Source: an uncultured Bacteroidales bacterium
GTDB lineage: Bacteria > Bacteroidota > Bacteroidia > Bacteroidales > VadinHA17
NCBI GenBank assembly: GCA_963732365.1
Contig: CAVSZC010000005.1
Coordinates: 1,761,748-1,825,747, forward strand
Length of the DNA stretch: 64,000 nucleotides
Direction of reading: 5' to 3'
Under the pieces are notes generated by a model that ran no database searches, was not told where the DNA came from, and was given only the letters and a program-made list of their open reading frames with translations. This document shows positions 4,877 through 61,296 of the stretch, in pieces (position 1 is the first letter of the stretch; each line of letters opens with the position of its first letter). The position numbers and the translations under genes are program-made.

Positions 4877-6700
4877 TTACCGGTAATAGGGCACTCCGGG
4901 AGGATCAGGATCAAAGTCTGGCGGTCTGAGACGTGACACACCATCTATGGAAAAAAATGAGGTTTCAGAATATGGCGGGGAATTGGGATAAAACGCGAAT
5001 CTGATCTGAAGGGTGTTCAGAACCAGCCGGTCATTCCTGATCCTTACACCTGCACCTACTGCAGAGACATTCTGATAGTCACCTGAATTCACTTTTCCGT
5101 TTATAAGGAATCCCGCATCGGCAAATGCAAATATCGCAAACCTGAAACCAACTAAAGATATGGGGGTAAGAAGAACAGGCTCCAGCGAGAAGACAATCCT
5201 GTTGTTTCCTGCGATCGAATCATTCCGGAAACCCCTGATATAGTCATCATTCTTCAGGTACAGATACTCATCCGTGTACCTTTTGAAGCCCCGTGTATGG
5301 TATATATTCACGAAGGTGCGGATCTTTGATCTGCCTGTCTGAATGAGAGGAGTGAAGTACCTGATGCTTAAGTTAGTCAAACCCTGCTCGGTATTATTGT
5401 TGTTATAAAATGTTGAGTAACTGAAGCCGGCGTATATATATCCCAGCTTCGTGAATATGTTTCCGTATGAGGCTTTCAGTCCCAGGTACTGTCTCCTTTT
5501 GAACTCATTGATCTCCAGTCCGCCGATAGCCTCGAGCATATACCCGTAGGGGATATCCTCAGTTCTTCCGTAGCTGTATATCAGGGATGTATTTATAAAT
5601 CGCTGTGATGAGAGGGCAATGCTGCCGGTCATCAGTTTGTAGCTCTGAAGCCTGTAGTATTCATTATGATCTATTTCCGGTCTCCGGAAGACGTTGTTAT
5701 GCATATACCTCCCGGTGAATATCAGCCTGGTCACATTTGAGCGGTCAAGCATGAATGACCTTGCAGCCCAGTAATCCTGGAAGGTATACCTCAATTGACC
5801 CGGGACGGCCATTGTGTCAAGGTCTTCAGTTGTGTAAGTCAGTCTGATTGAGGCTGACCAGGCATACTTTGTCTCTGAAGAGATGAAATCCCTTCCGAAG
5901 AGACCTCCCATTCGTGTTGACCCCAGTCCGTCAGAAAAATCAAGCTCCAGGTCGGCAAAGCTCCGCGCAATATTTCTGACAGTGTACCTTGTTCCAAACC
6001 CGGGATACGGATATTTATCAAAGTTGTAGGGAATAGAGATTTCAAGGTCCTGACCAAGACCAACAAAGTTATTGTCAAACAATCTCACTTTGCCGACTGA
6101 AAGATCACTCAGGCTGAAATCAAATCCGTAAGGATATTTCTCCCTGACAATTATGACCACATCAGCCGTTTCATCCGAGACGGGTATTATTGTTATCCTT
6201 ACGTCATCGATGTAGGGCAGTTTCCTCAGGAGCCTTTCGTTGTCTGCCATTCTGAGCGCAGAGACCGTATCGCCTTCATCAAAGAGAAGGTACTTCCTTA
6301 CTACAAAATTCCGTGTTTTGGAATATGTTGAGTTGAGTATTTTGTCAGCCCGGGAGGGATTTTTTTCAGTCGGGTCCTCAATGTTTGTGCCGAAGGCATC
6401 GAGCCGAATAAGGGTCAGGTTACGTATCACCTTTCCCTCAAAATCATCAAACAGGTTGGTGTTCTTCAACGCATCCCTGGCGTTTTCTGTCGTGGAAGGG
6501 GCGACAACAACGATGTCATAAAGGAGGCCCGAGAGATATCGCTTCTGTGCTCTGACCCTCAGTGTATCATAGAAAGCCTTAGAGATTGTGTCTGTATGTT
6601 CAACTTCCTGACCGTGCGACTGAAAAAAAATGCCGGGCTGCAGCAGGCATGCAATTAATAAATATCTGATAAAGAGCCCTTTATATTTGCATCGGTTCAC
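4877..6700 (-). CDS. Omp85/BamA-family outer membrane protein with one POTRA-like domain (TamL-like)
   Basis: There is an N-terminal signal with a possible lipobox (LLIAC). A POTRA-like segment follows (KVIRNLTLIRLD...VVRKYLLFDEGDTVSALRMADNERLLRKLPYIDDVRITIIP...VVIIVREK). The long C-terminal region has alternating aromatic and beta-strand character (GFRFAIFAFADAGF, VGAGVRIRN, LQIRFAFY). The apparent start is GTG and overlaps the upstream stop (GTGA). Confidence 0.6.
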   Translation of the reverse strand: MNRCKYKGLFIRYLLIACLLQPGIFFQSHGQEVEHTDTISKAFYDTLRVRAQKRYLSGLLYDIVVVAPSTTENARDALKNTNLFDDFEGKVIRNLTLIRLDAFGTNIEDPTEKNPSRADKILNSTYSKTRNFVVRKYLLFDEGDTVSALRMADNERLLRKLPYIDDVRITIIPVSDETADVVIIVREKYPYGFDFSLSDLSVGKVRLFDNNFVGLGQDLEISIPYNFDKYPYPGFGTRYTVRNIARSFADLELDFSDGLGSTRMGGLFGRDFISSETKYAWSASIRLTYTTEDLDTMAVPGQLRYTFQDYWAARSFMLDRSNVTRLIFTGRYMHNNVFRRPEIDHNEYYRLQSYKLMTGSIALSSQRFINTSLIYSYGRTEDIPYGYMLEAIGGLEINEFKRRQYLGLKASYGNIFTKLGYIYAGFSYSTFYNNNNTEQGLTNLSIRYFTPLIQTGRSKIRTFVNIYHTRGFKRYTDEYLYLKNDDYIRGFRNDSIAGNNRIVFSLEPVLLTPISLVGFRFAIFAFADAGFLINGKVNSGDYQNVSAVGAGVRIRNDRLVLNTLQIRFAFYPNSPPYSETSFFSIDGVSRLRPPDFDPDPPGVPYYR

Positions 6701-11711: not shown

Positions 11712-11790
11712 ATTTACCTTTCAACACATTGATTAAATGTTCCGCAAATGCAGGAGCAAGAGGGATCGTATACCAAAAAATACCCGTCAA

Positions 11791-13293
11791 ATGAAAAGGA
11801 TAAGAGTAATAATAGCTTCAGCACTTCTGCTTCTTCCCCTCCTGGTGAGCGGACAGAACATGGATGATGTGCTGAGATATTCGAGGTTGTTTTACCAGGG
11901 TTCGGCTCGCTTCAATGCCATGGGAGGCGCATTCACCTCGCTTGGCGGAGATATATCGTCAATAGCCATTAACCCCGCCGGAGCTGCCGTTTTTCGCTCT
12001 ACAGAGTTCTCCGTCACAACCAATATGCTGTTCCGCAAGACGGAGACAACATATAACGGATATTATTCAAACTACGACATAAATGAATTCAACCTCGGCA
12101 ACGCAGGGATTGTTGCGGCAGGAACACTGGGCACTAATTCAGGACTTGTAGGGCTGAGTTTTGCTTATACCTATAACCAGACAAATGATTTCAGAGAGTA
12201 TGCTGTCATTGAGGGTATAAGCGGTGCCAGCTCCATGACTGACTACTGGGCAGCAGGGGCAGACGGATACAATACATGGGAGCTGGTAGATTATACGTCA
12301 GCTCCGTATATGGCGTATGAGGCATGGCTCATCGATACCCTTTCGGGCAGCTTTACCGAGTACGCTTCAATCTTTTCATATTACGGCGATATGAATCCGG
12401 AGTACGGTCAGCGTACCAGGCGGACAATAGACAACGGAGGTTATACCGGTGACCATACTATTGCCTTCGGTGCAAACATCTCCAATATATTGTATGTCGG
12501 AGCCGGATTCGGTATTCAGGCCATGCAATATACCGGACACTATCTTCACAGTGAAGAGGATATTGATAACACTGTTCCCGACCTGGTCTACTTTAACTAC
12601 ACAGACCATTTTGATGCATCCGGAACAGGATGGAATTTCAAAGCAGGTATCATAGTCAGACCCATAGAGAGCCTTAGACTGGGATTCAGTTTTGCAACAC
12701 CTACGGTCTATAAAATTGATGAGGTGTTCTACAGCAACCTCTCAGCATTTCTCGACAATGACACTCCCGGTGACAACAGTGATGACGCTGATCCTCTTGT
12801 TGAGCAGAGTCCGCTGAGCTATGCCTACCGTATTACCACCCCCTGGAGGTTTGATACAGGCCTTGCACTGCAGATTGGGAAGATTGCCCTGATAAGCGCT
12901 GACTTTGAATTTGTTGATTATTCAAAGGCTTACCTGAGCTACGGTCTTGACGGTTACAACTTTTTTAGTGAAAACGAGGAGCTGAAGTCAGAACTGAAGG
13001 GTGCAGCTACATTTAAAGTGGGAGCAGAGGTACGCTTTGGGTCTATCTACGTGAGAGGCGGCGGCGGCTATACCCAGTCGGCTTTCAGGGAGGGCACTCT
13101 CAATGAAAACAGTGATTTTGTGAATTTCAGTGGCGGAATAGGCTACAGACAGAAGAACTTCTATGTAGACCTTTCGGTTGCAGGCCAGCTAAACAGCGAG
13201 GAATATATGATGTATCCCGATGCATGGCTTGAACCAACATATATAGATAACAGAGACATAAACGGAGCACTTACGATTGGTGTTAAGTTTTAG
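11791..13293 (+). CDS. FadL/OmpP1/TodX-like outer-membrane beta-barrel protein
   Basis: I trimmed the start to MKRIRVIIASALLLLPLLVSGQ (signal peptide). The conserved N-terminal plug-like motif is GSARFNAMGGAFTSLGGDISSIAINPAGAAVF. The body has alternating beta-strand pattern and the C-terminus ends in an aromatic residue (LTIGVKF). Confidence 0.5.
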   Translation: MKRIRVIIASALLLLPLLVSGQNMDDVLRYSRLFYQGSARFNAMGGAFTSLGGDISSIAINPAGAAVFRSTEFSVTTNMLFRKTETTYNGYYSNYDINEFNLGNAGIVAAGTLGTNSGLVGLSFAYTYNQTNDFREYAVIEGISGASSMTDYWAAGADGYNTWELVDYTSAPYMAYEAWLIDTLSGSFTEYASIFSYYGDMNPEYGQRTRRTIDNGGYTGDHTIAFGANISNILYVGAGFGIQAMQYTGHYLHSEEDIDNTVPDLVYFNYTDHFDASGTGWNFKAGIIVRPIESLRLGFSFATPTVYKIDEVFYSNLSAFLDNDTPGDNSDDADPLVEQSPLSYAYRITTPWRFDTGLALQIGKIALISADFEFVDYSKAYLSYGLDGYNFFSENEELKSELKGAATFKVGAEVRFGSIYVRGGGGYTQSAFREGTLNENSDFVNFSGGIGYRQKNFYVDLSVAGQLNSEEYMMYPDAWLEPTYIDNRDINGALTIGVKF

Positions 13294-13949: not shown

Positions 13950-14699
13950 TCACATCCTGTTGATCCTGCTGGCTGAGAAGCCAGCTCCGAAGCCGTTGTC
14001 GATATTAACCACAGTGACACCTGCCGCACAGCTGGTCAGCATTGCCAGGAGGGCAGATATCCCCTGGAACGAGGCTCCGTAACCGATGCTTGTCGGGACT
14101 GCTATCACCGGCATGTTCACAAGACCCCCGACGACGCTGGCCAGTGCTCCCTCCATACCGGCTATGACAACCGCCACCTTGCATCCGCGTATCTCGGGCA
14201 GCTTGTCAACAAGTCTGTGTATGCCTGCCACCCCGGCATCGTATATCCTTAAAACATTGTTTCCCAGCAGCTCAGCCGTGACAGCGGCCTCCTCCGCTAC
14301 CGGTATATCTGAGGTCCCTGCCGTGATAACGGCTATCCTGGTGGCAGGAGGAACCAGAGCTTTCCTTTGCAGGCTTATGATACGTGCCACATCATGATAG
14401 ATCGCAGCCGGGAAAAAGGGGCTTATATACTCAAACAACTCCTTTTCTGCGCGTGTCCCGATGATGTTGTTCTCATGCTCCTGCATCACTGAGAAGATCC
14501 CCCTTACCTGTTCATGCGTCTTCCCGGCACAGTAGACTATCTCAGGATATCCGGTACGCAGCTCACGATGATGATCAATACGGGCAAACCCGAGATCGCT
14601 GTAGGGGAAATTACGCAGCTTCTCCATTGCCTCATCAACACTCACTGATCCGTCACTAATCCCTTTAAGTATCTTTTCCAGTTCTAATGCATTCATCAC
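13950..14699 (-). CDS. larB: Nickel-pincer cofactor biosynthesis protein LarB (NaAD carboxylase/hydrolase, PurE-like)
   Basis: The PurE-like core is IAVITAGTSDIPVAEEAAVTAELLGNNVLRIYDAGVAGIHRL...VVIAGMEGALASVVGGLVNMPVIAVPTSIGYG. The N-terminal extension is typical of LarB. Confidence 0.85.
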   Translation of the reverse strand: MMNALELEKILKGISDGSVSVDEAMEKLRNFPYSDLGFARIDHHRELRTGYPEIVYCAGKTHEQVRGIFSVMQEHENNIIGTRAEKELFEYISPFFPAAIYHDVARIISLQRKALVPPATRIAVITAGTSDIPVAEEAAVTAELLGNNVLRIYDAGVAGIHRLVDKLPEIRGCKVAVVIAGMEGALASVVGGLVNMPVIAVPTSIGYGASFQGISALLAMLTSCAAGVTVVNIDNGFGAGFSASRINRM

Positions 14700-14700
14700 T

Positions 14701-15504
14701 TTAACTAATTTTGTTCATACTGCCGCTGCGGTAACCCTCCAGATCAATGGTGATATATCTGTAGCCCAGCTCTTTTAAACCTGACACAACCTTCTCTCTC
14801 ACCTCACCTGAGATTATCCCTGACAGCTGGTCTCTCCTAAGCTCTATGCGTGCAATATCGCCGTGGACCCTTATGCGTGAGGCTGTGAAACCCATCTTTG
14901 CGAGCAGCAGCTCTGCCTTTTCAGCCTTTCTCAGTTCATCAGCAGTGATTATTGTATCATGAGGGAAGCGTGTCAGAAGGCATGAGTTTGACAATTTCTC
15001 GCTTATCCCGAGTCCTGCTGCACGGGCCAGTGCCCTTATCTCTTCCTTGGTCAGTTCTGCTTCCAGCAGCGGACTTCTGACCTTCTGTTCTTCCAGGGCC
15101 TTCATTCCGGGTCGGTAATCATTTACGTCATCTGCATTTGTGCCGTCGAAGATCGTCATAATGTTTTCCTCTGCCGCAACTTTTCTGATGGCTTTAATGA
15201 CCACAGTTTTGCATAGGTAGCATCGTTCAGGAGGATTCCCGGTTACCGACTCAGGTATGCCGAAGGTGATCTCCCTGTGCTGCATCCCTATACTCCTGCA
15301 GAACTCTGCAGCCTCGCTGACCTCAGACGCAAACATATAGGGTGTATTGACCGTTACAGCCATGAACCTCGTACCATCGACCGCGGAGGCGACACTGGCG
15401 AGAAAGCTGCTGTCTGTACCTCCCGAGAGTGCTATTACAGCTGACCCGACATCAGACAGTATCTCTCTTAACTTGTTATGTTTCTCACTCAGGGTCATCG
15501 TCAT
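14701..15504 (-). CDS. larE: ATP-dependent sacrificial sulfur transferase LarE
   Basis: It has the PP-loop ALSGGTDSSFLA, the conserved Cys region ERCYLCK, and a C-terminal FRVRHHG-like RIRVHGDIARIE. It overlaps the larC stop by 4 nt (ATGA). Confidence 0.85.
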   Translation of the reverse strand: MTMTLSEKHNKLREILSDVGSAVIALSGGTDSSFLASVASAVDGTRFMAVTVNTPYMFASEVSEAAEFCRSIGMQHREITFGIPESVTGNPPERCYLCKTVVIKAIRKVAAEENIMTIFDGTNADDVNDYRPGMKALEEQKVRSPLLEAELTKEEIRALARAAGLGISEKLSNSCLLTRFPHDTIITADELRKAEKAELLLAKMGFTASRIRVHGDIARIELRRDQLSGIISGEVREKVVSGLKELGYRYITIDLEGYRSGSMNKIS

Positions 15505-16808
15505 TTTGTTATAAGGGTGATAATCTCATTCATGACCTGTTTCATGGGAATGCCCGTCTCGGCTGCAATGGCGGCACAGCGGTCAGCTTCAGGTTTGGCG
15601 GATACAAGACGGCCATTGAAAAAAGACTTCTTTATCATCACCCGGCCAAACCTGGTCTCTATCTCCTCAAGCTCACGGTGCAGGGTCTCCTTTGTAAAGT
15701 GAATGATTCTCAATCCTATTGTTGTTGATTCGCTGAAAAGAATCTCTCTTATTACGCTTATCTGTTCTTCTTCACAGATAACGCTGATGGTAAAGGCAGG
15801 CCTACCCTTTTTCATTATGACCGGCGTAAAGAAGACATCTCTGGCACCTGCGTCAAAGAGTCTCTGAGAGACGTATTCTGACAGTTCAGGATTCATATCG
15901 TCAACATTGCATTCGACGAGGACAGCCTGGTGTCCTGAGCCTGACACTTCAGCTGTCTCTGCCATGAATACCCGCAGGATATTGGGCCGGGAGGGATTGT
16001 TCTTCTGCCCTATACCGTATCCTGTTGCCTCTATATTGAATTTCAGTCCGTCAGGTGCCGGACTGGCCAGAGCAGCAATGATTGCCGCACCTGTCGGTGT
16101 TGTGGCCTCAAAGTCAACTCCCCCCGTGTGAACCGGCAAACCGCTGATGATTCTTGCTGTGGCAGGAGCAGGGACGGGAAGAAGCCCGTGTTCACACCTT
16201 ACCATTCCGCTCCCGAGCTCAATGGTGTTGACATATACCTTTTCAACTCCAAGGGCGGTGAAGCATATTGCAGAACCCACAATGTCAATAATCGAGTCAA
16301 TGGCTCCTACTTCATGAAAGTGAATCTCATTTACAGGCTTGTTATGCACTGCTGCTTCGGCCTCAGCAATCACTGTGAAGATTTTCATTGCCAGTGCCGT
16401 GACATTATCCGGGAGTCCGGAGCCAAGAATGATCTTCTCTATATCTCCCAGGTTCCTGTGAACATGGTCATAATTCTTATGGCTGTGGGGCTGGGGCTGG
16501 TGATGGTTATGCCCGTGATCATGGCGGTGGTCAGCACCGTGGCCGTGGTCGTGGCCATGATCGTGATCATGATCATGATCATGATCACGATCATCCGGAC
16601 TGACAGATAGCTCATCTGTTATGACCGTCACCTTTGTTCCAGCGATGCCGTGCCTCTGGTCAGATGTAATCTCCAGCCTCCAGCCGCTGATATTCAGTTT
16701 CTGCAATCCGCTGAGCAGTTCATCCTGGCTAACCCCCAGGTCAAGCATGGCTCCCAGGTTCATGTCACCGCTTATCCCGGAAAAACAGTCATAGTATAAT
16801 ATCTTCAT
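15501..16808 (-). CDS. larC: Nickel insertion protein LarC (single polypeptide) with internal His/Asp-rich tract
   Basis: The N-terminus MKILYYDCFSGISGDMNLGAMLDLGV is DUF111/LarC-like, and there is an internal His-rich region. I preferred the ATG at 16808 over the one at 16829 by comparison with typical LarC N-termini. Confidence 0.85.
   Translation of the reverse strand: MKILYYDCFSGISGDMNLGAMLDLGVSQDELLSGLQKLNISGWRLEITSDQRHGIAGTKVTVITDELSVSPDDRDHDHDHDHDHGHDHGHGADHRHDHGHNHHQPQPHSHKNYDHVHRNLGDIEKIILGSGLPDNVTALAMKIFTVIAEAEAAVHNKPVNEIHFHEVGAIDSIIDIVGSAICFTALGVEKVYVNTIELGSGMVRCEHGLLPVPAPATARIISGLPVHTGGVDFEATTPTGAAIIAALASPAPDGLKFNIEATGYGIGQKNNPSRPNILRVFMAETAEVSGSGHQAVLVECNVDDMNPELSEYVSQRLFDAGARDVFFTPVIMKKGRPAFTISVICEEEQISVIREILFSESTTIGLRIIHFTKETLHRELEEIETRFGRVMIKKSFFNGRLVSAKPEADRCAAIAAETGIPMKQVMNEIITLITK
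16479..16595 (-). repeat. His/Asp-rich coding tract of larC, including a (GATCAT)n microsatellite at about 16564-16594
   Basis: It encodes DDRDHDHDHDHDHGHDHGHGADHRHDHGHNHHQPQPHSH. The plus strand reads gatcatgatcatgatcatgatcacgatcat. Confidence 0.9.
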
Positions 16809-16962
16809 CACGTTCAGCTTTTTTAACATTCATATGGTCTGAGCCTCCATTGCCCGTGAGCAGCGCTCTCAGGCTGCTAATATAAGAATAGAGAAGCTAT
16901 ATATTGAAAAAAATTGTAATTTGCACCCTCACATTCTGGGGTAACAGAAATCATTGACGGGT

Positions 16963-17889
16963 ATGAAAAGAAGACATTTTTTGCGCAGCTCACTTGGTGC
17001 CGGCCTGGCTGCAGGAACTTTTATGAGTCTTGGACCATATGAAAAGGTACTGGCAGGGAAACCCTTGCCGCAGGGAGCGAATTATGATCTCGTTGCCGTA
17101 ATGGGAGGTGAGCCCGCCGCAATGTTCGATATTGGTATTCAGGCGCTTGGAGGGATAGGCTCCTTTGTCAGCAAAGGGCAGAAGGTGCTTGTTAAGCCTA
17201 ACATCGGATGGGACGTACTTCCTGAGAAGGGTGCCAACACAAACCCGGCACTTGTAAAAAGAGTGATCGAGCATTGTTTCAAGGCCGGAGCCAAAGAGGT
17301 ATATGTATTTGACAACACCTGCGATAACTGGATAAAATGCTATGAGAACTCCGGGATTCAGAGAGCTGTGAAAGATGCAGGCGGTAAGATGGTACCGGGA
17401 AATTCTGAGAGCTATTATCAGGAGATAACAATTCCCAACGGAAAGAACCTGACAAAAACGAAGGTTCATGAGCTGGTCCTTGAGAGCGATGTTTTTATTA
17501 ACATTCCGGTACTGAAGCATCACAGTTCAACCAGGATGACAGCTGCCCTGAAGAATATGATGGGGGTAGTCTGGGACAGAGGCTACTGGCATGCAAATAA
17601 CCTTCCTCAGTGCATTGCCGATTACGCCCTTTATTCAAAAAAGCCGCAATTAAATATAATTGATGCATACAATGTGATGATGCGCAACGGACCCCGGGGA
17701 GTCTCAAAGGAAGATATCAGCAATATGAAATCCTTGATTATCTCCACTGACTGGGTGGCTGCCGACGCCGCTGCTGCAAAGATGATGAGCCTTGACCCTC
17801 AGAAAATTGACTATATACCTATTGCAGCAGGAATGGGTATCGGCAAGATGGACCTGTCAACCATGAATATCCACAGGATAAAAATGTAG
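16963..17889 (+). CDS. Tat-signal DUF362 domain protein (predicted periplasmic, cofactor-bearing)
   Basis: The twin-arginine signal is MKRRHFLRSSLGAGLAAGTFMSLG. The DUF362-type pattern is KVLVKPNIGW...NPALVKRVIEHCFKAGAKEVYVFD...INIPVLKHHSSTRMTAALKNMMG...IIDAYNVMMRNGP. Confidence 0.75.
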   Translation: MKRRHFLRSSLGAGLAAGTFMSLGPYEKVLAGKPLPQGANYDLVAVMGGEPAAMFDIGIQALGGIGSFVSKGQKVLVKPNIGWDVLPEKGANTNPALVKRVIEHCFKAGAKEVYVFDNTCDNWIKCYENSGIQRAVKDAGGKMVPGNSESYYQEITIPNGKNLTKTKVHELVLESDVFINIPVLKHHSSTRMTAALKNMMGVVWDRGYWHANNLPQCIADYALYSKKPQLNIIDAYNVMMRNGPRGVSKEDISNMKSLIISTDWVAADAAAAKMMSLDPQKIDYIPIAAGMGIGKMDLSTMNIHRIKM

Positions 17890-17895
17890 GGTTTC

Positions 17896-19458
17896 ATGCG
17901 GTCAGTAGTGCTCAGACATATTCGTATTGTATTTTCCTTTATTGTGCTGCTGCTGCTTTCATTCCTCTTCATCGACTTCAGGGGTATGGTGCCTGAAAAG
18001 GCCTTCGGACCGCTGTTATATCTTCAGTTTATTCCTTCACTGCTGAAATTCGTCATTGCAGGTGTTGCAACGGCAACCGGTTTTGTCATCATTCTGATCC
18101 TTACCGTTCTGTCGGGAAGGACCTACTGCTCATTCCTGTGTCCCCTGGGCATCCTCCAGGATGTCATCAGCAGAATAGGCGGGTTTGTAAAGAGACGGTT
18201 CCGGAAATACGCCTATAAGAAACCCTACACGATACTACGCTATTTTATCCTTGCTCTTACGGCAGGCATCCTGCTAATCGGAGGGGTCTATGTACTTACA
18301 ATACTAGATCCCTACAGCATCTTCGGCAGGTTGATGACCTATTTTGTCAAGCCCGCTGCAATCTTCCTTAACAACCAGGTAGCCGGTATCCTCGGTAAGT
18401 TCGACATTTACACCCTTTACAAGATTGATATAAAGCCTTTTGAGCTGGCTGTCTATGCTGTCCCTACTGCATTTCTGATGTTGATTGGATTCCTGTCTTT
18501 CAGATACGGAAGGCTCTACTGCAACACCGTTTGTCCTGTGGGTACTTTTCTTGGATTTCTCAGTAAGATATCACTCTTCAGGATAAGGTTTGATGAGGAG
18601 AAATGCAATCGTTGCGGGAGGTGTGCGATGTCATGCAAGTCATCATGCATCGACTTCCTGAACAAGCATGTTGATATCAGCAGATGCGTCAATTGCTTCA
18701 ACTGTCTTGAAGCCTGCCACGAGAAAGCCATGTCATACGGTGTAGTCAGGTTCAGGAGTTCCGGTGAGCCGGCCGAACCCGATGCTTCCAGGCGAAATTT
18801 CATTGCAGGTTCACTGTTGATGATTGCCGGAAGTTCACAAATCATACGTGCACAGAATTCCACCACCCCTGTTCCGACCAAAGACTCAACCGTAAAGGAA
18901 GACCGGCTCTACCCCGTATCTCCTCCCGGATCAGCAGGCTTATCAACCTACACCTCCCGTTGCACCGCATGCTCACTCTGTGTCTCTGCCTGCCCCACCA
19001 GCGTCCTTCAGCCTTCGGTTAGCGAGTTCGGGATTGCCGGTATAATGCAGCCGAGGATGGATTTTCACCGGGGATTCTGCAATTATGAATGCACTCTGTG
19101 CACTGACATTTGTCCGACCGGTGCCATTATGCCACTTATGGTGGAAGCAAAGAAACTGACCCGTATTGGCAAGGCAGTATTTATTAAAGACAACTGCATC
19201 GTTGCAACCGAGAAGACGGCTTGCGGTGCATGCTCAGAACACTGCCCCACAAAGGCGTGTGCAATGATCCCATATGAAGGTAATCTTCTGATCCCGGAAG
19301 TGATTGACGATATATGCATCGGATGCGGAGCATGTGAATATGCGTGCCCCACTAAACCCTACAAGGCAATTTTCGTTGACGGTAACCCCCTTCATGAGGT
19401 GGCAAAGAAACCTGAATCAAAAAAGATGGAAACAGCTCCGGCAGATTTTCCATTCTGA
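17896..19458 (+). CDS. Membrane polyferredoxin, NapH-like N-half fused to NapG-like C-half
   Basis: There are four N-terminal TM helices with CSFLCPLG and CNTVCPVG motifs. Two 4Fe-4S motifs follow (CNRCGRCAMSC, CVNCFNCLEAC). An internal SRRNFIAGSLLMIAGSSQIIRAQ segment then precedes four more cluster motifs (CTACSLCVSACP, CTLCTDICP, CGACSEHCP, CIGCGACEYACP). Confidence 0.75.
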   Translation: MRSVVLRHIRIVFSFIVLLLLSFLFIDFRGMVPEKAFGPLLYLQFIPSLLKFVIAGVATATGFVIILILTVLSGRTYCSFLCPLGILQDVISRIGGFVKRRFRKYAYKKPYTILRYFILALTAGILLIGGVYVLTILDPYSIFGRLMTYFVKPAAIFLNNQVAGILGKFDIYTLYKIDIKPFELAVYAVPTAFLMLIGFLSFRYGRLYCNTVCPVGTFLGFLSKISLFRIRFDEEKCNRCGRCAMSCKSSCIDFLNKHVDISRCVNCFNCLEACHEKAMSYGVVRFRSSGEPAEPDASRRNFIAGSLLMIAGSSQIIRAQNSTTPVPTKDSTVKEDRLYPVSPPGSAGLSTYTSRCTACSLCVSACPTSVLQPSVSEFGIAGIMQPRMDFHRGFCNYECTLCTDICPTGAIMPLMVEAKKLTRIGKAVFIKDNCIVATEKTACGACSEHCPTKACAMIPYEGNLLIPEVIDDICIGCGACEYACPTKPYKAIFVDGNPLHEVAKKPESKKMETAPADFPF

Positions 19459-19645: not shown

Positions 19646-20065
19646 ATGAAACCTACACATATTGAGCATATTGGTATTGCTGTAAATTCACTGGCAGAGG
19701 CCATTCCCTTTTACGAGAATGTTCTTGGTCTGAAGTGTTACAGCATCGAGGAGGTAGCTGACCAGAGAGTTAAGACTGCCTTTTTTATGGTTGGTCAGAC
19801 CAAGATCGAGTTGCTGGAATCGACTGATCCGGAAGGGCCCATCGGTAAGTTCATAGAGAAGAGGGGTGAGGGAATACATCACATTGCCTTTGCAGTCGCA
19901 GACCTGGAGGAGAGGCTCCGGGAAGCTGAGGCTGCAGGGATAAAACTGATAGATCTTCAGCCGCGACGCGGCGCTGAGGGGTTGAGCATCGCATTTATGC
20001 ATCCGAAATCAACATTCGGCGTGCTTACGGAATTATGTGAAGACAAGAATATCACTAAGAAATAA
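19646..20065 (+). CDS. mce: Methylmalonyl-CoA epimerase (VOC/glyoxalase fold)
   Basis: [24 protein letters not shown]...[32 protein letters not shown] matches the epimerase. Its position directly before the mmd genes supports the call. Confidence 0.85.
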
Positions 20066-20078
20066 CATAATCGATAAA

Positions 20079-21638
20079 ATGAACAGCCAGGAAAGAATAC
20101 AGCAGCTCCTTGATTTCAGGCAGAAGGCACGCCTGGGAGGGGGAGACAAGCGAATTGAGGACCAGCATCAGAAGGGAAAGCTGACGGCCAGGGAGCGCAT
20201 AACGTTGCTGCTCGATGAAGGCAGCTTTGAGGAGTATGACATGTTTGTAACGCACCGTACTGAGGATTTTGGTCTTGCAGACAAAAAGTTCCTTTCTGAC
20301 GGTGTTATAACCGGTCATGGCACGATCGACGGGCGTGTAGTCTATGTGTTTGCTCAGGATTTCACCGTGTTCGGGGGCTCTCTGTCGGAGACATTCGCGC
20401 AGAAGATATGCAAGATCATGGATCAGGCGATGCAGGTGGGTGCACCGGTAATAGGTATCAATGACTCAGGCGGTGCAAGGATACAGGAGGGAGTAAGAAG
20501 CCTTGCCGGTTATGCAGAGATCTTTGAGCGAAACATACTTGCGTCAGGGGTCATCCCCCAGATATCGGCCATCTTCGGCCCCTGTGCCGGGGGTGCGGTC
20601 TATTCCCCCGCACTCACAGACTTCATAATCATGAGCCGCAAGAGCAGCTATATGTTCGTAACCGGACCAAAAGTAGCCAGGGCGGTGACAGGGGAGGATA
20701 TTTCCATCGAGGACCTGGGAGGGGCAAAGGTTCATTCAACAAAATCCGGTGTGGCCCATTTTGTGGTTGAGGAAGAGAAGGAGGGCCTCGACCTGATCAG
20801 GAAGCTGCTCAGCTTCATGCCGCAGAATAACCTGGAAGAGCCACCGCAGACAGAGTGTGATGACCCCATTGACAGGCTAGAGGATGACCTGAATGATATC
20901 ATACCTGAAAGCCCGAACCAACCTTATGACGTCAAGGATGTCATAAGCCGTGTGGTTGACTACCACGATTTTCTTGAGGTACATGAAGCTTACGCGAAGA
21001 ATATAGTTGTAGGTTTTGCAAAATTCGGAGGAATGCCTGCAGGGATCGTCGCTAACCAGCCTGCTTACCTCGCTGGGGTGCTTGACATCGAGGCATCACG
21101 CAAGGCAGCACGGTTCATCCGTTTTTGTGACGCTTTCAATATTCCCGTGGTGACCTTTGTGGATGTGCCCGGCTTTCTGCCCGGCTCGGCCCAGGAATAC
21201 GGCGGTATTATTATCCACGGTGCAAAGCTCATGTTCGCGTACGGTGAGGCCAGCGTTCCGAAGGTTACCGTTACACTTCGCAAATCATACGGCGGAGCAC
21301 ATTGCGTCATGTCGTCGAAGCAGCTAAAGGGCGACATCAATTATGCATGGCCTACCGCAGAGATTGCCGTGATGGGCCCTCAGGGAGCCATAGAAGTGCT
21401 TGAAGGAAAAGCAATAAGCGAAATAAGTGACCCGAAGGAGAAAAAAGATTATGTCTCCAGAAAAGAGCAGGAGTACCGGTCAAAATTTGCCAATCCATAC
21501 GAGGCCGCCAGGTACGGTTATCTCGATGATGTGATCGAGCCGCGAAATACACGGTTCAGGGTGGTAAGAGCGCTGAGAACCCTCTCAACAAAGAAAGATC
21601 CGGGGCCAATGAAGAAACACGGTAATATACCCTTATAA
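20079..21638 (+). CDS. mmdA: Methylmalonyl-CoA decarboxylase alpha subunit (carboxyltransferase, 12S-type)
   Basis: [34 protein letters not shown] and [16 protein letters not shown] are acyl-CoA carboxyltransferase signatures. I set the start at ATG 20079, just after the mce stop. Confidence 0.9.
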
Positions 21639-21647
21639 AGAAATGAT

Positions 21648-22016
21648 ATGAGACTTCAGGTATTATTCTCAGTAACAGGGCCTGTCATTGACTCCCTTAC
21701 ATGGACGATAGTGATTGTGGGCATGGGTATTGTCTTCCTGTCACTGACAATTGTCTATCTCTTTTTCAGGTATTTGCTGCCATTCATAATGAACTTCAGG
21801 TTAATGAGCTTTGCCCGCAGAAGAGGAATTGATCCGTCAGAGATAGTCACAGCCAGGAACAAGCTGTCAGGTGAGGTGAATGCCGCCATAGCCATGGCAA
21901 TATACTCATATATGAGTGAGCTGCATGACGTTGAGAGCGGTGTGATAACCATCAGGCGAGTATCAAAGAACTACTCACCATGGAGTTCAAAACTTTATAA
22001 TATGAAAAACCTTTAA
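21648..22016 (+). CDS. OadG-family small membrane subunit of the Na+-translocating decarboxylase (delta/gamma-like)
   Basis: It has a single N-terminal TM helix (WTIVIVGMGIVFLSLTIVYLFF). Its size and its position between the carboxyltransferase and the BCCP fit this subunit. Confidence 0.65.
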   Translation: MRLQVLFSVTGPVIDSLTWTIVIVGMGIVFLSLTIVYLFFRYLLPFIMNFRLMSFARRRGIDPSEIVTARNKLSGEVNAAIAMAIYSYMSELHDVESGVITIRRVSKNYSPWSSKLYNMKNL

Positions 22017-22047
22017 GATCAGCATATCAGACTGAAGGAGGAAAGAG

Positions 22048-22467
22048 ATGAAGAACTACAAGTTTACAGTAAACGGAAACAAGTATGAGGTTGAAATACT
22101 TGATATTGATGGCAATATGGCCACGATAGAGGTTAACGGTACAACATACAATGTTGAAATTCACCATGAGGTGCCGAAGCTGAAACCTATCCAGCCGGTG
22201 ACTACACAGAAGCCAGCCAGAGCATCTGCCCCTGATTCCGTTAGTGGCGGAATTTCTGCAACGGTAAAAGCTCCTCTCCCCGGGGTGATATTGCAGGTCC
22301 TTGTCAGACCGGGTGATGAGGTGAATGCCGGACAGACACTGTGCACTCTTGAAACGATGAAGATGGAGAATGCCATAAAAACTGAAACGTCCGGCAAGGT
22401 CTCCAGGGTGAATATTTCACAGGGACAATCAGTGCTTCAGGATGAGGTTTTAATAGAACTGAACTGA
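22048..22467 (+). CDS. mmdC: Biotin carboxyl carrier protein subunit
   Basis: The biotinyl-lysine motif is LETMKMEN, and the PLPGVILQVLVRPGDEVNAGQTL lipoyl/biotinyl fold is present. An SD-like GAAGGAGG lies upstream. Confidence 0.85.
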   Translation: MKNYKFTVNGNKYEVEILDIDGNMATIEVNGTTYNVEIHHEVPKLKPIQPVTTQKPARASAPDSVSGGISATVKAPLPGVILQVLVRPGDEVNAGQTLCTLETMKMENAIKTETSGKVSRVNISQGQSVLQDEVLIELN

Positions 22468-22469
22468 TT

Positions 22470-23822
22470 ATGGCAAGGAGAAAAGCATGGACCATGATCG
22501 GACTGCTGGTGATCGTTTCACTGGCATGGACAGCATTTGTTAAACCGGAAAAGGATAGGGAAAAGGCCGTTGCAGCCTCCGGTACGGAGATTGTAAGTAC
22601 ACTGCCGCAATACCAGCCTTCTGACCCTGATGAGGCACCCCTGGCGGGAGGGTTGAAGCAGTTCTGGGCATATACCGGATTCCGGAATGCCACATCCGGA
22701 AACCTTATTATGATAATTGTAGGTCTTATTTTTATCTTCCTGGCAATCAGATTCGAATATGAGCCGTTGCTTCTGGTCCCCATCGGTACGGGCATACTCA
22801 TCGGCAACATTCCCTTCTTCAATGACGGAGGGCTGAATCTTCAGATAGGTATCTATCAGCAGGGGAGCGTGCTCCATTATCTCTATTTCGGGGTATTGAA
22901 GGGGATATACCCGCCCCTTATCTTCCTTGGCATCGGGGCTATGACCGATTTCTCATCTCTGATCTCCAATCCACGTCTCCTGCTCCTCGGTGCTGCTGCA
23001 CAGCTTGGAATCTTCGTTTCTTTTATAGGTGCACTGTTTTTGGGTTTTAATGGTCCTGAAGCCGCAGCCATCGGAATTATCGGGGGAGCTGACGGCCCTA
23101 CTGCAATTTTTCTCTCCTCCAGACTGGCAAACGGTGTGAATATTCTGCCTGACGGAACCACCGTAAAGAACCTAATTGGGCCGATAGCTATTGCTGCATA
23201 TTCATACATGGCATTAGTGCCTGTGATACAGCCACCAATCATGAGGCTCATGACAAGCAAGAAAGAGAGGCTCATTCGCATGAAGCCTCCAAGGGCAGTA
23301 ACAAGGACAGAGAAAATTCTCTTTCCCATTTTTGGTCTTCTGCTTACATGTTTTATTTCTCCAAGCGCCCTTCCTCTGCTTGGAATGCTCTTTTTCGGCA
23401 ACCTGCTCAAAGAGTCCGGAGTGACAAAAAGGCTCGCAGAGACTGCCAGAACCTCGCTTATAGATATAGTCACGATAATGATAGGACTCACCGTAGGAGC
23501 CTCAACCCAGGCAGATGTTTTTCTTACCAGGGAGTCAGTTCTTATATTCGGACTCGGTGCATGCGCCTTTGGCTTTGCAACTTTCGGGGGTGTTGTTTTT
23601 GCCAAGATTATGAATATCTTCCTGCCTGAAGGTGAAAAAATCAATCCCCTGATCGGTAATGCGGGTGTGTCAGCGGTACCTGACAGTGCCCGGGTATCTG
23701 AGATGGAAGGACTGAGGGAAGATAAAACAAACCATCTTCTGATGCATGCAATGGGTCCCAATGTCGCCGGAGTGATCGGGTCAGCCATAGCAGCGGGGAT
23801 ATTGCTCAGTTATCTCGGATAA
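22470..23822 (+). CDS. mmdB: Na+-translocating decarboxylase beta subunit (OadB/MmdB family)
   Basis: This is a polytopic membrane protein with conserved IGGADGPTAIF and NAGVSAVPDSARV-type segments typical of the beta subunit. Confidence 0.85.
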   Translation: MARRKAWTMIGLLVIVSLAWTAFVKPEKDREKAVAASGTEIVSTLPQYQPSDPDEAPLAGGLKQFWAYTGFRNATSGNLIMIIVGLIFIFLAIRFEYEPLLLVPIGTGILIGNIPFFNDGGLNLQIGIYQQGSVLHYLYFGVLKGIYPPLIFLGIGAMTDFSSLISNPRLLLLGAAAQLGIFVSFIGALFLGFNGPEAAAIGIIGGADGPTAIFLSSRLANGVNILPDGTTVKNLIGPIAIAAYSYMALVPVIQPPIMRLMTSKKERLIRMKPPRAVTRTEKILFPIFGLLLTCFISPSALPLLGMLFFGNLLKESGVTKRLAETARTSLIDIVTIMIGLTVGASTQADVFLTRESVLIFGLGACAFGFATFGGVVFAKIMNIFLPEGEKINPLIGNAGVSAVPDSARVSEMEGLREDKTNHLLMHAMGPNVAGVIGSAIAAGILLSYLG

Positions 23823-23859
23823 TTATTTAAGTTTGTATAAACTACCTAAGAGAGCGGAG

Positions 23860-25077
23860 ATGAAGCAGGCAATTGCCGGGAATACCGGCCCGAAGGTCAG
23901 GTCTGACGTTGAAGTGACCCTGGAAATAAAAGGTTCAGGAGGAGTGGAGATGAACCTCAAGTCGAAGGTAAAGAGCATGTATGGCAATGCAATCGAAATG
24001 CAGTGCCGGGAACTGCTTAAATTCTTCGGTGTGGAGAACGCAAAGCTGTCACTGATTGACAGCGGTGCCCTCCCCTTCGTGATAGCGGCAAGAGTGGAGG
24101 CTGCGGTAAAGACACTGACAGGAACTGAGGCTGCGTTCCTGCCCGTGATGATCCCTGAGAACATCTATCACTCAGCCAGGGAGAGGTTTCGCTTTTCAAG
24201 GCTGTATCTTCCCGGAAACAATCCCGGCATGTTCCTGAATGCCGGACTTCATTCACCCGATGGCATCATCCTTGACCTTGAAGATTCGGTTGCTCCTGAC
24301 AGAAAGGATGAGGCCCGGATCCTTGTCAGAAATGCTCTCAGGGCAGTAGATTTCTACGGAGCTGAAAGAATGGTAAGGATAAACCAGGGAGAGCGCGGGT
24401 TGACTGACCTTGAGAGTGTCATACCTCACAACGTGCACCTCATCCTTATTCCGAAATGCGAGGATACAGATGCTCTCCGTATGGTTGACGAGACGATTGC
24501 CTCAATAAAGAGGAGGGAGGGTCAGAACGATACAGTGCTTCTGATGCCGATCATAGAGAGTGCAAAAGGTGTGGAAAGAGCCTATGAGATAGCAACGGCA
24601 TCACCAAATGTGGTAGCGATGGCCATCGGGCTGGAGGATTTTACCGCTGATCTTGGGGTACAAAGGACAAAAGAGGGTTCAGAGTCACTCTATGCCCGTA
24701 ACCGTATCGTTGTGGCAGCAAGAGCTGCCGGCATCCAGGCCATCGACTCCGTCTTCTCCGATGTGGGTGATATGGATGGCCTCCTCAGTAATGTGCTCTC
24801 ATCGAAAGCAATGGGCTTCGAGGGGATGGGTTGCATACATCCGCGTCAGATTGCAGTCATACGCAAGGGCTTCTCTCCAACGCCTGAAGAGATTGACAGG
24901 GCCAGGAAGATAGTAATCGCATACCGCGATGCAATTTCCAGGGGGCTTGGTGTGGTGGCACTCGGATCTAAGATGATCGATCCGCCTGTGGTGGCAAGAG
25001 CACAGAAAACGATAGACCTGGCGGTACGCCTGGAAATTATCCCACAAAACTGGATTGAAGAGGAGGGTAAGGAATAA
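23860..25077 (+). CDS. Fused citrate lyase acyl carrier protein (CitD, N-terminal about 95 aa) and citryl-CoA lyase beta subunit (CitE)
   Basis: The N-terminal part AIAGNTGPKVRSDVEVTLE...LIDSGALPFVIAARVEAAV parallels CitD (AGTLESGDV...DKGALDCILRARLEA). The rest, SRLYLPGNNPGMF...GIILDLEDSVAPDRKDEAR, is HpcH/CitE-like. Confidence 0.8.
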   Translation: MKQAIAGNTGPKVRSDVEVTLEIKGSGGVEMNLKSKVKSMYGNAIEMQCRELLKFFGVENAKLSLIDSGALPFVIAARVEAAVKTLTGTEAAFLPVMIPENIYHSARERFRFSRLYLPGNNPGMFLNAGLHSPDGIILDLEDSVAPDRKDEARILVRNALRAVDFYGAERMVRINQGERGLTDLESVIPHNVHLILIPKCEDTDALRMVDETIASIKRREGQNDTVLLMPIIESAKGVERAYEIATASPNVVAMAIGLEDFTADLGVQRTKEGSESLYARNRIVVAARAAGIQAIDSVFSDVGDMDGLLSNVLSSKAMGFEGMGCIHPRQIAVIRKGFSPTPEEIDRARKIVIAYRDAISRGLGVVALGSKMIDPPVVARAQKTIDLAVRLEIIPQNWIEEEGKE

Positions 25078-34142: not shown

Positions 34143-35066
34143 TCAGAAATTGATGACAAAATCAAGCCATGGAATGCCAATTACGATCTCCGATGCAATA
34201 TCAGGATTATTAAGGAATGCCAGGTCGATGGATGTTTTTTCTCCAAGGAATCTGATGCCATAGGAATATATTCCGTAATAACCACCATCATCTGAAATAC
34301 CTGGTACAATCCAGTTTTCACTGACAAATCCGATCCTCTTTGATGCTCTTGCCATACCGCTAATTATTATTACAGGCTTGGAGCTGAATTCTCCATCTGC
34401 CCAGCCCCAGCCTACTGCAGCTGTAATATTATTGTTTGTGTTGCCGTATGTAGCAAAACCGTTTATTGTGGCAAGCCCTCCAAAGTCTTCTGCATATTTG
34501 ATTGTATTGGCATACAATACATTTGCTCCAGCATAGAAGTTTTCAGCTACCTTAAAGGATGCTTTCGGATTGATGTAAAATGCATAAGGGCCGTCTCCGC
34601 CTGCCATTAGTGAAATTATTTCAAAACCACCTGCGATACTTATATTATTGGTTATACCATAGCTGAAAGAGCTTATGAAGATCCATGTATTCTGATAGTA
34701 TCCGCTCTTTTTCTCCATGGGGATGGCAGAGTTGCCCAGGAGATATTTAGAAGGATTAGGGTTTGTGAACCATATTCCGGATTCTTTTTCATCAAATGAG
34801 GACACCTGAGTCATCGTTTTAATGTTTGCTTTTGACAAACGAATTTCACCCAGTGTTCCTGATTGAATTACTACCTCATTGTCAGTAATAGATACTAGTT
34901 TACCGGATATGCTTGATCCATCATTCAGTGTGACCATATAGGTCTTTGAAACTTCACCTGTAATTACTTGCTGGGCAATAGCATTACTGGTTATTAATAT
35001 CATTACCATGATGATACTAATAAAAGCCCTGGTGATACTGCTTAAACCAACGTCTGTGCTTTTCAT
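34143..35066 (-). CDS. Hypothetical exported protein, possibly an outer-membrane beta-barrel
   Basis: The signal-like N-terminus is FISIIMVMILITSNAIAQQ. The C-terminal two thirds are Gly/aromatic-rich with alternating pattern, and the last residue is aromatic (INF). By eye it is noticeably more AT-rich than its neighbours. Confidence 0.5.
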   Translation of the reverse strand: MKSTDVGLSSITRAFISIIMVMILITSNAIAQQVITGEVSKTYMVTLNDGSSISGKLVSITDNEVVIQSGTLGEIRLSKANIKTMTQVSSFDEKESGIWFTNPNPSKYLLGNSAIPMEKKSGYYQNTWIFISSFSYGITNNISIAGGFEIISLMAGGDGPYAFYINPKASFKVAENFYAGANVLYANTIKYAEDFGGLATINGFATYGNTNNNITAAVGWGWADGEFSSKPVIIISGMARASKRIGFVSENWIVPGISDDGGYYGIYSYGIRFLGEKTSIDLAFLNNPDIASEIVIGIPWLDFVINF

Positions 35067-60384: not shown

Positions 60385-61296
60385 TTATTTCGGGATCTTA
60401 AAGGTCAGGCCTACTCCGATAACTTCCTTGAACTGAGCTCGTTTACCCCAGAGAGGTGCGCCTTCGCCATCTTCCCCGACCTTGATCAGTATATCGTCAT
60501 CATAGAGGAGGTGGGTGGTAACCGTGGCAGCGAGCCAGTTGTTAACCTTCAATATGGCAAGTATTTCCCAGCTGACATCTATATTCTGCGGGTTGTTGAG
60601 ATAATTGGAAAAGAGGTCAAGTTTCGATACCAGGTTGACATTTTTCACAATGTTCTCTTTCTTAAAGACAATATTGGCATATGCACCAAATTCTGCCCTG
60701 AAACTCTTCCCTGGCTCAACCCCGAATGCTCCTGCCGAAGAGAGATCGTCATCCATGACTATTGTTGTCTTTGCAGTCAGCGGTGAGATAAAAGCTGTAA
60801 AGACCGGATTTGGTTTGTAGTCCATACCAAGGGAGAACACAAGATAACCCGGAGCAAGAAAGTCAGAGATCTTGTTTGTGACATCAGGGTAGTTGTATCC
60901 TGCAGCGAACTGTGATTTGAAGCCCAGAAGGGCTGAATAGTACCATGCTTTCCCTGCCTCAAGGCCATACTTGGAGAGAAAATCGATCTTGTCATCGGTT
61001 TTGACCCATTCAACCTCATTGCCTTTCTGCTTCATCATACCGTAACCAACAGTAAGGTTATTATCCCAGGCAGACCTTCCCTTCTTGTAATTGGCACTGA
61101 ATGATGCAAGACCGCTGAGAGCAACCGAATTCTGACCGCCTGCAGCCCAGTTGGTGAATGTGCTCTGTGCCACGTTAATTGAGAAAGCTCCGGTTTTGGT
61201 CCAGTATTTTACAGTATCTGTATCCTGGCTGAATCCGGTCGTTCCGATTGATCCGATCAGGAAAACAATCAGAATAATGGTGTTTTTTCTGTTCAT
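60385..61296 (-). CDS. DUF3078 outer-membrane beta-barrel protein
   Basis: There is a signal peptide. WTKTGAFSINVAQSTFTNWAAGGQNSVALSGLASFSANYKKGRSAWDNNL matches the DUF3078 pattern. Confidence 0.75.
   Translation of the reverse strand: MNRKNTIILIVFLIGSIGTTGFSQDTDTVKYWTKTGAFSINVAQSTFTNWAAGGQNSVALSGLASFSANYKKGRSAWDNNLTVGYGMMKQKGNEVEWVKTDDKIDFLSKYGLEAGKAWYYSALLGFKSQFAAGYNYPDVTNKISDFLAPGYLVFSLGMDYKPNPVFTAFISPLTAKTTIVMDDDLSSAGAFGVEPGKSFRAEFGAYANIVFKKENIVKNVNLVSKLDLFSNYLNNPQNIDVSWEILAILKVNNWLAATVTTHLLYDDDILIKVGEDGEGAPLWGKRAQFKEVIGVGLTFKIPK

Follow-up and report, generated by a model that had tools for sequence, protein, structure and literature searches.

Among the genes of a 64,000-nucleotide stretch of DNA from an uncultured Bacteroidales bacterium (GTDB lineage VadinHA17; assembly GCA_963732365.1, contig CAVSZC010000005.1, positions 1,761,748 to 1,825,747; here called the window, position 1 being its first letter) is one that codes for a membrane-bound polyferredoxin of 520 aa. 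The protein is a distant Bacteroidales member of a published class, the polytopic polyferredoxins which employ both the Sec and the twin-arginine translocation (Tat) pathways (Tooke et al., 2017; PMC5449189). An earlier reading, made from the sequence alone, had proposed a fusion of NapH with NapG that requires mixed Sec/Tat insertion; with respect to the published class this idea is a rediscovery. By analogy with the class, Tat probably carries the folded C-terminal half across the membrane by way of an internal signal. The polyferredoxin gene follows that of a DUF362 protein which has a Tat signal of its own. Our arguments are taken from sequence, motifs, homology, conservation, hydrophobicity and synteny, and from these we infer topology, Tat dependence and a role in electron transfer.

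A NapH-like and a NapG-like module joined by a probable internal Tat signal

The N-terminal half of the polyferredoxin has the layout of NapH. A scan for the predicted apparent free energy of membrane insertion (dGapp) finds four segments with negative values, all of them ahead of the twin arginine, i.e., the number of helices is even. The scan used a re-implementation of the Hessa/von Heijne predictor, which exactly reproduced four published values for the polyferredoxin of the delta proteobacterium MLMS-1. Lysines and arginines are unevenly distributed: three in the N-terminal tail, nine in the loop 74-110 and 15 in the region 205-300, against three and five in the two outer loops. This positive-inside distribution places R299-R300 on the cytoplasmic face and indicates an N-in topology. 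The sequence-only reading had listed four transmembrane helices, two 4Fe-4S motifs and two CxxCP motifs in this half. The helices and the cluster motifs stand; the remaining two motifs have the spacing Cx3CP (CSFLCP behind helix 2 and CNTVCP behind helix 4). Downstream of the twin arginine the four 4Fe-4S motifs of the NapG layout are present as it had described (Table 1). Pfam Fer4 families match both halves, and all cluster and Cx3CP cysteines are invariant in 117 homologues.

Both halves align with their counterparts in E. coli K-12. Residues 39-280 match NapH 68-276 (E 1e-12), the two Cx3CP motifs and the two cluster motifs being aligned with their counterparts, and residues 293-484 match NapG 5-196 (E 2e-13). 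The NapG alignment opens with AEPDASRRNFIAG of the polyferredoxin over AKPQNGRRRFLRD of NapG. Here R299-R300 coincide with R11-R12 of NapG's Tat signal, after which the PPG motif and the four clusters follow in order. Thus, the NapH-like and the NapG-like modules are joined via the equivalent of the NapG signal peptide, which supports the proposed fusion.

Common to the protein and E. coli NapH are the four helices and the pairs of Cx3CP motifs and of cytoplasmic clusters; with NapG it has in common the Tat signal and the PPG motif as well as the four clusters. There are also differences. In E. coli the two proteins are encoded by separate genes and serve as quinol dehydrogenase of the periplasmic nitrate reductase, whereas the partner in the window is a DUF362 protein and not a nitrate reductase. 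In the nap operon of E. coli K-12 napG precedes napH; in the fusion the order is reversed and the NapH part comes first. Therefore, the fusion did not arise from simple read-through of a nap-type gene pair. The nearest NCBIfam families are NapH/MauN for the N-terminal half and NapG for the isolated C-terminal half. This agrees with the assignment of the sequence-only reading, but the scores are far below the curated cut-offs: the NapH models NF007013 and TIGR02163 give 79.5 bits (cut-off 234) and 86.8 bits (cut-off 213), and the NapG models NF007012 and TIGR00397 give 51-54 bits against a cut-off of 269, with 416 bits for E. coli NapG as a control. The halves are homologous to NapH and NapG, not equivalogs, and a function as quinol dehydrogenase is thus only an analogy. 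No napA, napB or napC is found in the window; the neighbours are DUF362, larC, larE and larB and genes of a methylmalonyl-CoA decarboxylase. A true Nap system is rejected on account of these scores and of the lack of nap genes in the window, and we call the protein NapGH-like.

The joining segment was predicted by the sequence-only reading to be a twin-arginine signal in the middle of the protein. Residues 298-320 are encoded exactly by positions 18787-18855 and read SRRNFIAGSLLMIAGSSQIIRAQ. The stretch between the flanking arginines is short, 16-17 residues only, and its dGapp (residues 299-319) is marginal, +2.47 compared with -0.95 to -3.08 for helices 1-4. What had been termed an AxA-like end is I317-R318-A319, followed by Q320. 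Basic residues come after the segment: R318, which is K or R in 76/121 close homologues, then K329, K334 and R337. The strict pattern [ST]RRxF[LIVMA] with a subsequent uncharged stretch occurs once in a six-frame translation of the whole window. As it is also conserved among homologues, the motif is not a chance match.

Searched against the PDB at the level of both sequence and fold, the polyferredoxin returned generic ferredoxin modules only (FwdF, RnfB, NuoI) and no solved NapH-type membrane domain. Homologues with no more than 38-55% identity share a nearly invariant F-P-F at the extreme C-terminus (19447-19455), possibly a docking motif.

Conservation of the fusion and of the twin arginine

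In a word-indexed protein search 7782 proteins reached E ≤ 1e-10. Those ranked highest, 120 in number, are 500-528 aa long, 60-97% identical to the window protein, all full length and from Bacteroidales wherever named. An exhaustive search of representatives at 50% identity gave 1421 clusters at E ≤ 1e-30; of the best 150 representatives, 149 have the full length (485-634 aa), the other being a fragment of 376 aa. In a scan of GTDB species genomes 80 of 80 loci are full length. According to their record titles these loci belong to Bacteroidota, Ignavibacteriota, Desulfobacterota, Planctomycetota, Verrucomicrobiota, Fibrobacterota and Gammaproteobacteria. A naturally split polyferredoxin was not seen in any of the three sets, i.e., the best 120 proteins, the best 150 representatives and the 80 loci. 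On the frequency of the fusion relative to split genes, which the sequence-only reading had left to a survey, these sets show that the fusion is the rule.

The same reading had staked its inference in advance on conservation of the twin arginine, and the motif is kept. Position 300 is R in all 121 close homologues and in 144 of 151 diverse representatives. Position 299 is R in 96 and K in 25 of the close set, and R in 114 and K in 34 of the diverse set, i.e., R or K in 148/151. Position 302 is F in 103/151 of the diverse representatives. All in all, [RK]R is preserved in about 97% of 270 homologues, and in 225/231 sequences the motif was found with a hydrophobic run behind it. The low hydrophobicity of the segment is a property of the family, too. 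Medians of dGapp over 220 full-length members are -2.17 (helix 1), -1.49 (region of helix 4) and +1.68 (segment after the twin arginine); in this last segment 96% of the members have a positive value.

Membership in the class of dual Sec/Tat polyferredoxins

By searching prokaryotic proteomes for a twin-arginine motif preceded by helices in even number, Tooke et al. (2017, eLife; PMC5449189) obtained the family 'polytopic polyferredoxin' with Q1NSB0 from MLMS-1 as the type protein. Q1NSB0 spans the membrane with five helices and has clusters on either side of it; its twin arginine, located ahead of helix 5, is conserved, and the protein was described by the authors as 'a fusion of NapH ... with NapG' (PMC5449189). 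When MBP (the maltose-binding protein) or AmiA was placed after helix 5 of the MLMS-1 protein, export depended on Tat and on the twin arginine (PMC5449189). The hand-over from Sec to Tat hinges on how weakly hydrophobic helix 5 is and on the basic residues which follow it (PMC5449189).

Our comparison with Q1NSB0 covers residues 1-364, which are given in the supplement of that paper. Residues 74-306 of the window protein align with this part (BLASTP E 6e-18) and the twin arginines are in register. A close relative, P0001 (97% identical to the window protein), aligns with 26% identity from residue 6 to 321 with Q1NSB0 9-361, which takes in helices 1 to 5. The likeness extends to a NapH-like N-terminal half with Cx3CP motifs and cytoplasmic clusters, a twin arginine directly before a fifth hydrophobic segment of positive dGapp, basic residues behind this segment and a four-cluster C-terminal domain. 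All features by which the class is recognized at the level of sequence are present in the window protein: an even number of helices, the twin arginine, positive dGapp, trailing basic residues, four 4Fe-4S motifs in the C-terminal domain plus cytoplasmic clusters in the N-terminal half, and homology to the type protein.

There are differences. Identity is only about 26% and the MLMS-1 protein has a long insertion in its cytoplasmic domain. Further, the sequence behind the segment of the MLMS-1 protein, LLRVSNPPE, shows no peptidase-like site, whereas in the window protein and its relatives Gly, Ala or Ser followed by Gln is present there. Bacteroidota are absent from the phyla named for the polyferredoxin family, and a DUF362 partner is not mentioned by Tooke et al. 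(PMC5449189). The actinobacterial Rieske proteins (Sco2149 and M. tuberculosis QcrA) and the heme-molybdenum protein Sco3746 follow the same logic: Sec inserts the early helices, and Tat handles the last helix together with the folded cofactor domain (PMC5449189). Their last helix, too, is weakly hydrophobic and is preceded by an even number of Sec helices (PMC5449189). In folds and cofactors the Rieske proteins (2Fe-2S, three helices) and Sco3746 (heme b and molybdenum cofactor) are unrelated to the polyferredoxin.

Biogenesis, topology and competing explanations

Following the class, the biogenesis of the window protein most probably proceeds as follows. Sec would insert helices 1-4 co-translationally, with the Cx3CP motifs and the ferredoxin domain of two clusters remaining on the cytoplasmic side. 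The segment 302-317 with the trailing R318 would be too weakly hydrophobic to be retained by Sec. The C-terminal domain would fold in the cytoplasm and acquire its four 4Fe-4S clusters there, whereupon the Tat translocase would recognize S-R-R-N-F-I and move the folded domain into the periplasm. In this location the NapG-like domain most probably would pass electrons between the Tat-exported DUF362 protein and the membrane, i.e., the quinone pool, the cytoplasmic clusters or both. The NapG alignment of the twin arginine, its conservation and the positive-inside charges support the mixed Sec/Tat insertion which the sequence-only reading had deduced.

A number of observations weigh against this route. 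The direct export tests concern an N-terminal fragment of the MLMS-1 protein, 26% identical, in E. coli only. Both halves stay far below the equivalog cut-offs of NapH and NapG. The dGapp of +2.47 exceeds the published range of 0.3-1.7, and the segment may be a poor permanent anchor. Position 299 is Lys in about a fifth of the homologues, and KR pairs are unusual in classical Tat signals. In the AlphaFold2 model of the polyferredoxin (predicted local distance difference test, pLDDT, 91; predicted template modelling score, pTM, 0.88) the two halves are docked confidently, and residues 303-327 are a coil with pLDDT <50 and no helix. Tat genes are not visible in the window. Pfam TAT_signal did not match the isolated C-terminal half; the profile also missed the E. 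coli NapG control and is hence uninformative.

Part of these observations would suit a protein whose four-cluster C-terminal domain stays in the cytoplasm, the twin arginine and the hydrophobic stretch being a relic of the NapG signal that now acts as a linker, with all clusters facing the cytoplasm. The low confidence of the segment and the confident docking of the halves in the AlphaFold2 model, the positive dGapp of the segment and the Lys variants speak for such an arrangement. Against it stands conservation: [RK]R-x-F-[LI] with an uncharged stretch is retained in about 97% of members which otherwise are 38-55% identical, and this in a highly variable region. The homologous segment of the MLMS-1 protein drives export in a manner dependent on the twin arginine and on Tat (PMC5449189), and lineage-specific peptidase motifs follow the segment. 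Moreover, the partner from the same operon is itself Tat-exported, which independently supports a periplasmic NapG-like domain. We consider a cytoplasmic C-terminal domain very unlikely.

Still less probability, in fact hardly any, is left for an insertion of helix 5 by Sec with the C-terminal domain crossing unfolded and acquiring its clusters outside, or for a fusion that is an artefact. Sec is the default route for polytopic proteins, and beyond this nothing specific speaks for it here. The positive dGapp and the trailing basic residues, which were shown in the 2017 study to abort Sec insertion (PMC5449189), argue against it. So does the conserved twin arginine. Further, we know of no periplasmic Fe-S assembly system, which also counts against clusters being acquired outside. 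An artefact of assembly or a frameshift is rejected: the same uninterrupted reading frame is found in >270 independent sequences from many assemblies.

Permanent anchor or cleaved signal

Provided that Tat exports the C-terminal domain, the signal could, at about equal odds, stay behind as a fifth helix or be cut at A319/Q320 (here and below a slash marks the presumed cut). In the published model the segment is a permanent helix (PMC5449189). Alternatively, signal peptidase I may cut A319/Q320 after Tat transport and the new N-terminal Gln may cyclise as it does in other exported proteins of Bacteroidetes, a possibility which, on the basis of sequence motifs, we rate as slightly less likely than not. 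The gene would then code for the precursor of two subunits: a NapH-like membrane protein with five helices and, bound to it, a soluble ferredoxin of the NapG type in the periplasm. For a few homologues, a lipobox cysteine would provide the released domain with a lipid anchor.

The residues around the putative site are conserved in a manner typical of a peptidase substrate in this phylum. Among 121 close homologues position -1 is G, A or S in 119 and position +1 is Gln in all; the residues found at position -3 are S, L, V, A and I. Substrates of signal peptidase I in Bacteroidetes mostly expose Gln, the 'Q-rule' (PMC5837995). At least six predicted exported proteins in the window (4877-6700, 11737-13293, 34143-35066, 38014-39477, 60385-61296 and 62933-63832) show Gly, Ala or Ser ahead of Gln, e.g., LVSG/QN, AIA/QQ, ALRG/QD, GFS/QD and AMNG/QK, which indicates that the organism follows the Bacteroidetes rule. 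Of 54 Bacteroidota loci, 27 have the pattern [small]-x-[AGS]-Q where the h-region ends, compared with a mean of 7.8 and a maximum of 14 in 200 shuffles; in other segments of the same proteins its frequency is 3.3%. These counts are uncorrected for relatedness. The segment is unstructured in AlphaFold2, i.e., the fold gives no reason for the conservation of A319/Q320; the N-terminal Tat signal of the DUF362 partner is treated likewise as a low-confidence coil. The short h-region, 16-17 residues between arginines, and its dGapp of +2.47 also fit a cleavable signal.

In seven homologues (L068, L073, L045, P0128, P0136, P0144 and P0148) a lipobox-like cysteine is located exactly 19-20 residues past the twin arginine (e.g., FLSAC, FLQSC and GLNSCKDE). 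Judged from these motifs, the variants suggest lipoprotein-type processing of the internal Tat signal. A signal peptidase I site engineered behind helix 5 of the MLMS-1 protein released AmiA (PMC5449189). On the other side, the evidence for cleavage is motif-based, and an obvious site is missing in about half of the Bacteroidota members and in most members from other phyla, the MLMS-1 protein included. We know of no polytopic protein in which an internal Tat signal is cut naturally, and this likewise counts against cleavage.

The DUF362 partner

The DUF362 gene ends 6 nt before the start of the polyferredoxin. Its product matches the DUF362 family at Pfam E 1e-52, and judged from homologues its real start is the ATG at 16963. 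A DUF362 gene is positioned directly upstream in 71 of the 76 loci in which the upstream flank is present, two of them frameshifted, and in at least six phyla; it is the sole near-universal neighbour across the 80 loci. The RR-x-F motif of its Tat signal is conserved. In one locus (L079) the partner is, in place of DUF362, an aldo/keto reductase with a Tat signal, a lipobox and C-terminal 4Fe-4S motifs (L079:7504-8904, + strand), and is located downstream of the polyferredoxin, not upstream. The polyferredoxin may thus serve different periplasmic oxidoreductases.

The AlphaFold2 model of the DUF362 protein (pLDDT 83) resembles LarA. In a Foldseek search the 18 best PDB matches all belong to the LarA family, with E-values of 4e-7 to 3e-4 and a probability of 1.00 each. 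DUF362 and the DUF2088 domain of LarA are members of a common Pfam clan, CL0471 (PMC11770544). Sequence similarity between DUF362 and LarA was not detected by phmmer, by hmmsearch against the PDB, by hhalign against one and two LarA sequences or in Pfam at E ≤ 10. H187 and K197 of DUF362 are invariant and H210 is nearly so. The spacing of 10 residues between H187 and K197 equals that between H174 and K184 of LarA. In LarA, K184 tethers the cofactor, and H174 and H200 are nickel-binding or catalytic. H187, K197 and H210 may accordingly be equivalent to H174, K184 and H200, a match in spacing without support from an alignment. DUF362 differs from the LarA superfamily in length, being shorter by about 120 residues. 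Further, it is exported by Tat and has an electron-transfer protein as its partner, whereas the known LarA enzymes are cytoplasmic isomerases that catalyze no net redox change.

The lar genes and a possible nickel-pincer enzyme

Divergent from the DUF362-polyferredoxin operon are larC, larE and larB. All three score above NCBIfam equivalog cut-offs, i.e., the full pathway to the nickel-pincer nucleotide is encoded. In 17 of the 80 loci lar genes flank the DUF362-polyferredoxin pair, and they do so in three arrangements. In Bacteroidales they are divergent as in the window. In a metagenome-assembled genome (MAG) of the Thermoguttaceae larC, DUF362 and polyferredoxin follow each other on one strand. 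In two gammaproteobacterial MAGs (L046:1672-4489 and L054:5920-10520) the polyferredoxin is followed by larC on the same strand, in L054 also by larE and larB; in neither is there a DUF362 gene within 6 kb. A LarA homologue was found neither in the window nor among the open reading frames of the 80 loci and their flanks. In the LarC protein residues about 78-120 (window about 16470-16600, - strand) form a long insertion rich in Asp and His, DRDHDHDHDHDHGHDHGHGADHRHDHGHNHHQPQPHSH, which presumably is a nickel-binding stretch.

Hundreds of prokaryotes make the nickel-pincer cofactor yet have no LarA homologue (a 2026 paper; PMC13524815). DUF362, ferredoxins and the periplasm are not mentioned in that paper (PMC13524815), and in our literature search we found no paper which links DUF362, the polyferredoxin and the lar genes. 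The DUF362-polyferredoxin pair might be a periplasmic redox enzyme that uses the nickel-pincer nucleotide; we put this forward as a speculation which is rather unlikely to hold. In such an enzyme a LarA-fold DUF362 protein would be loaded with the cofactor supplied by LarB, LarE and LarC and would be exported in the folded state by Tat. It would then oxidise or reduce a periplasmic substrate, with net turnover of electrons and no isomerisation. The NapG-like domain, brought out by the internal and possibly cleaved Tat signal, and the NapH-like module would conduct these electrons, either into the quinone pool or out of it.

Features of the locus and downstream genes

The coordinates are collected in Table 1. 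Downstream of the polyferredoxin, positions 19646-25077 (+ strand) carry a cluster of the type of the Na+-pumping methylmalonyl-CoA decarboxylase with epimerase, carboxyltransferase, oxaloacetate decarboxylase (OAD) gamma subunit, biotin carrier and OAD beta subunit. Behind it is a fusion that resembles the acyl carrier protein and the beta subunit of citrate lyase. Epimerase and carboxyltransferase adjoin the polyferredoxin in its closest relatives only.

Table 1. Features of the polyferredoxin locus, in window positions
Feature	Position	Strand	Details
larB	13950..14699	-	carboxylase/hydrolase of nickel-pincer cofactor synthesis
larE	14701..15504	-	sulfur transferase of nickel-pincer cofactor synthesis
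larC	15501..16829	-	nickel insertion into the nickel-pincer nucleotide cofactor; divergent from the DUF362-polyferredoxin operon
DUF362 protein	16963..17889	+	308 aa from ATG; N-terminal Tat signal MKRRHFLRSSLGAGLAAG; predicted LarA-like fold
Polytopic polyferredoxin gene	17896..19458	+	520 aa; NapH-like module, internal Tat signal, NapG-like module
Transmembrane helix 1	17911..17979	+	residues 6-28; dGapp -2.98
Transmembrane helix 2	18043..18111	+	residues 50-72; dGapp -1.59
First Cx3CP motif	18127..18144	+	CSFLCP, residues 78-83; cytoplasmic end of helix 2; both Cys invariant
Transmembrane helix 3	18238..18306	+	residues 115-137; dGapp -3.08
Transmembrane helix 4	18445..18513	+	residues 184-206; dGapp -0.95
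Second Cx3CP motif	18520..18537	+	CNTVCP, residues 209-214; both Cys invariant
Cytoplasmic ferredoxin domain	18604..18717	+	two Cx2Cx2Cx3C motifs (237-247, 264-274)
Internal Tat signal	18787..18855	+	S298-R-R-N-F-I; weakly hydrophobic h-region of 16 residues, 302-317; R318 as C-terminal positive charge
Putative signal peptidase I site	18844..18855	+	I317-R318-A319 / Q320; inference from motif
Linker	18856..18930	+	residues 321-345; ends in NapG/NapF-type PPG motif; low AlphaFold2 confidence up to 327
NapG-like domain	18961..19350	+	four 4Fe-4S motifs (356-367, 395-407, 434-451, 474-485)

Implications

The window protein extends the published class of polytopic polyferredoxins to the Bacteroidota, and the database searches demonstrate the abundance of the family (1421 clusters at 50% identity, E ≤ 1e-30). 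If the internal signal were cleaved, some dual-targeted proteins would be precursors which are cut after transport, a point outside the current model. The LarA-like fold of the partner and the recurrence of lar genes bear on the question which enzymes use the nickel-pincer cofactor where LarA is absent. If the DUF362-polyferredoxin pair were indeed a nickel-pincer redox enzyme, it would be the first enzyme with this cofactor to be located beyond the cytoplasm and the first to be linked with an electron-transfer chain, and it would offer a candidate use of the nickel-pincer nucleotide in organisms which make the cofactor without LarA.

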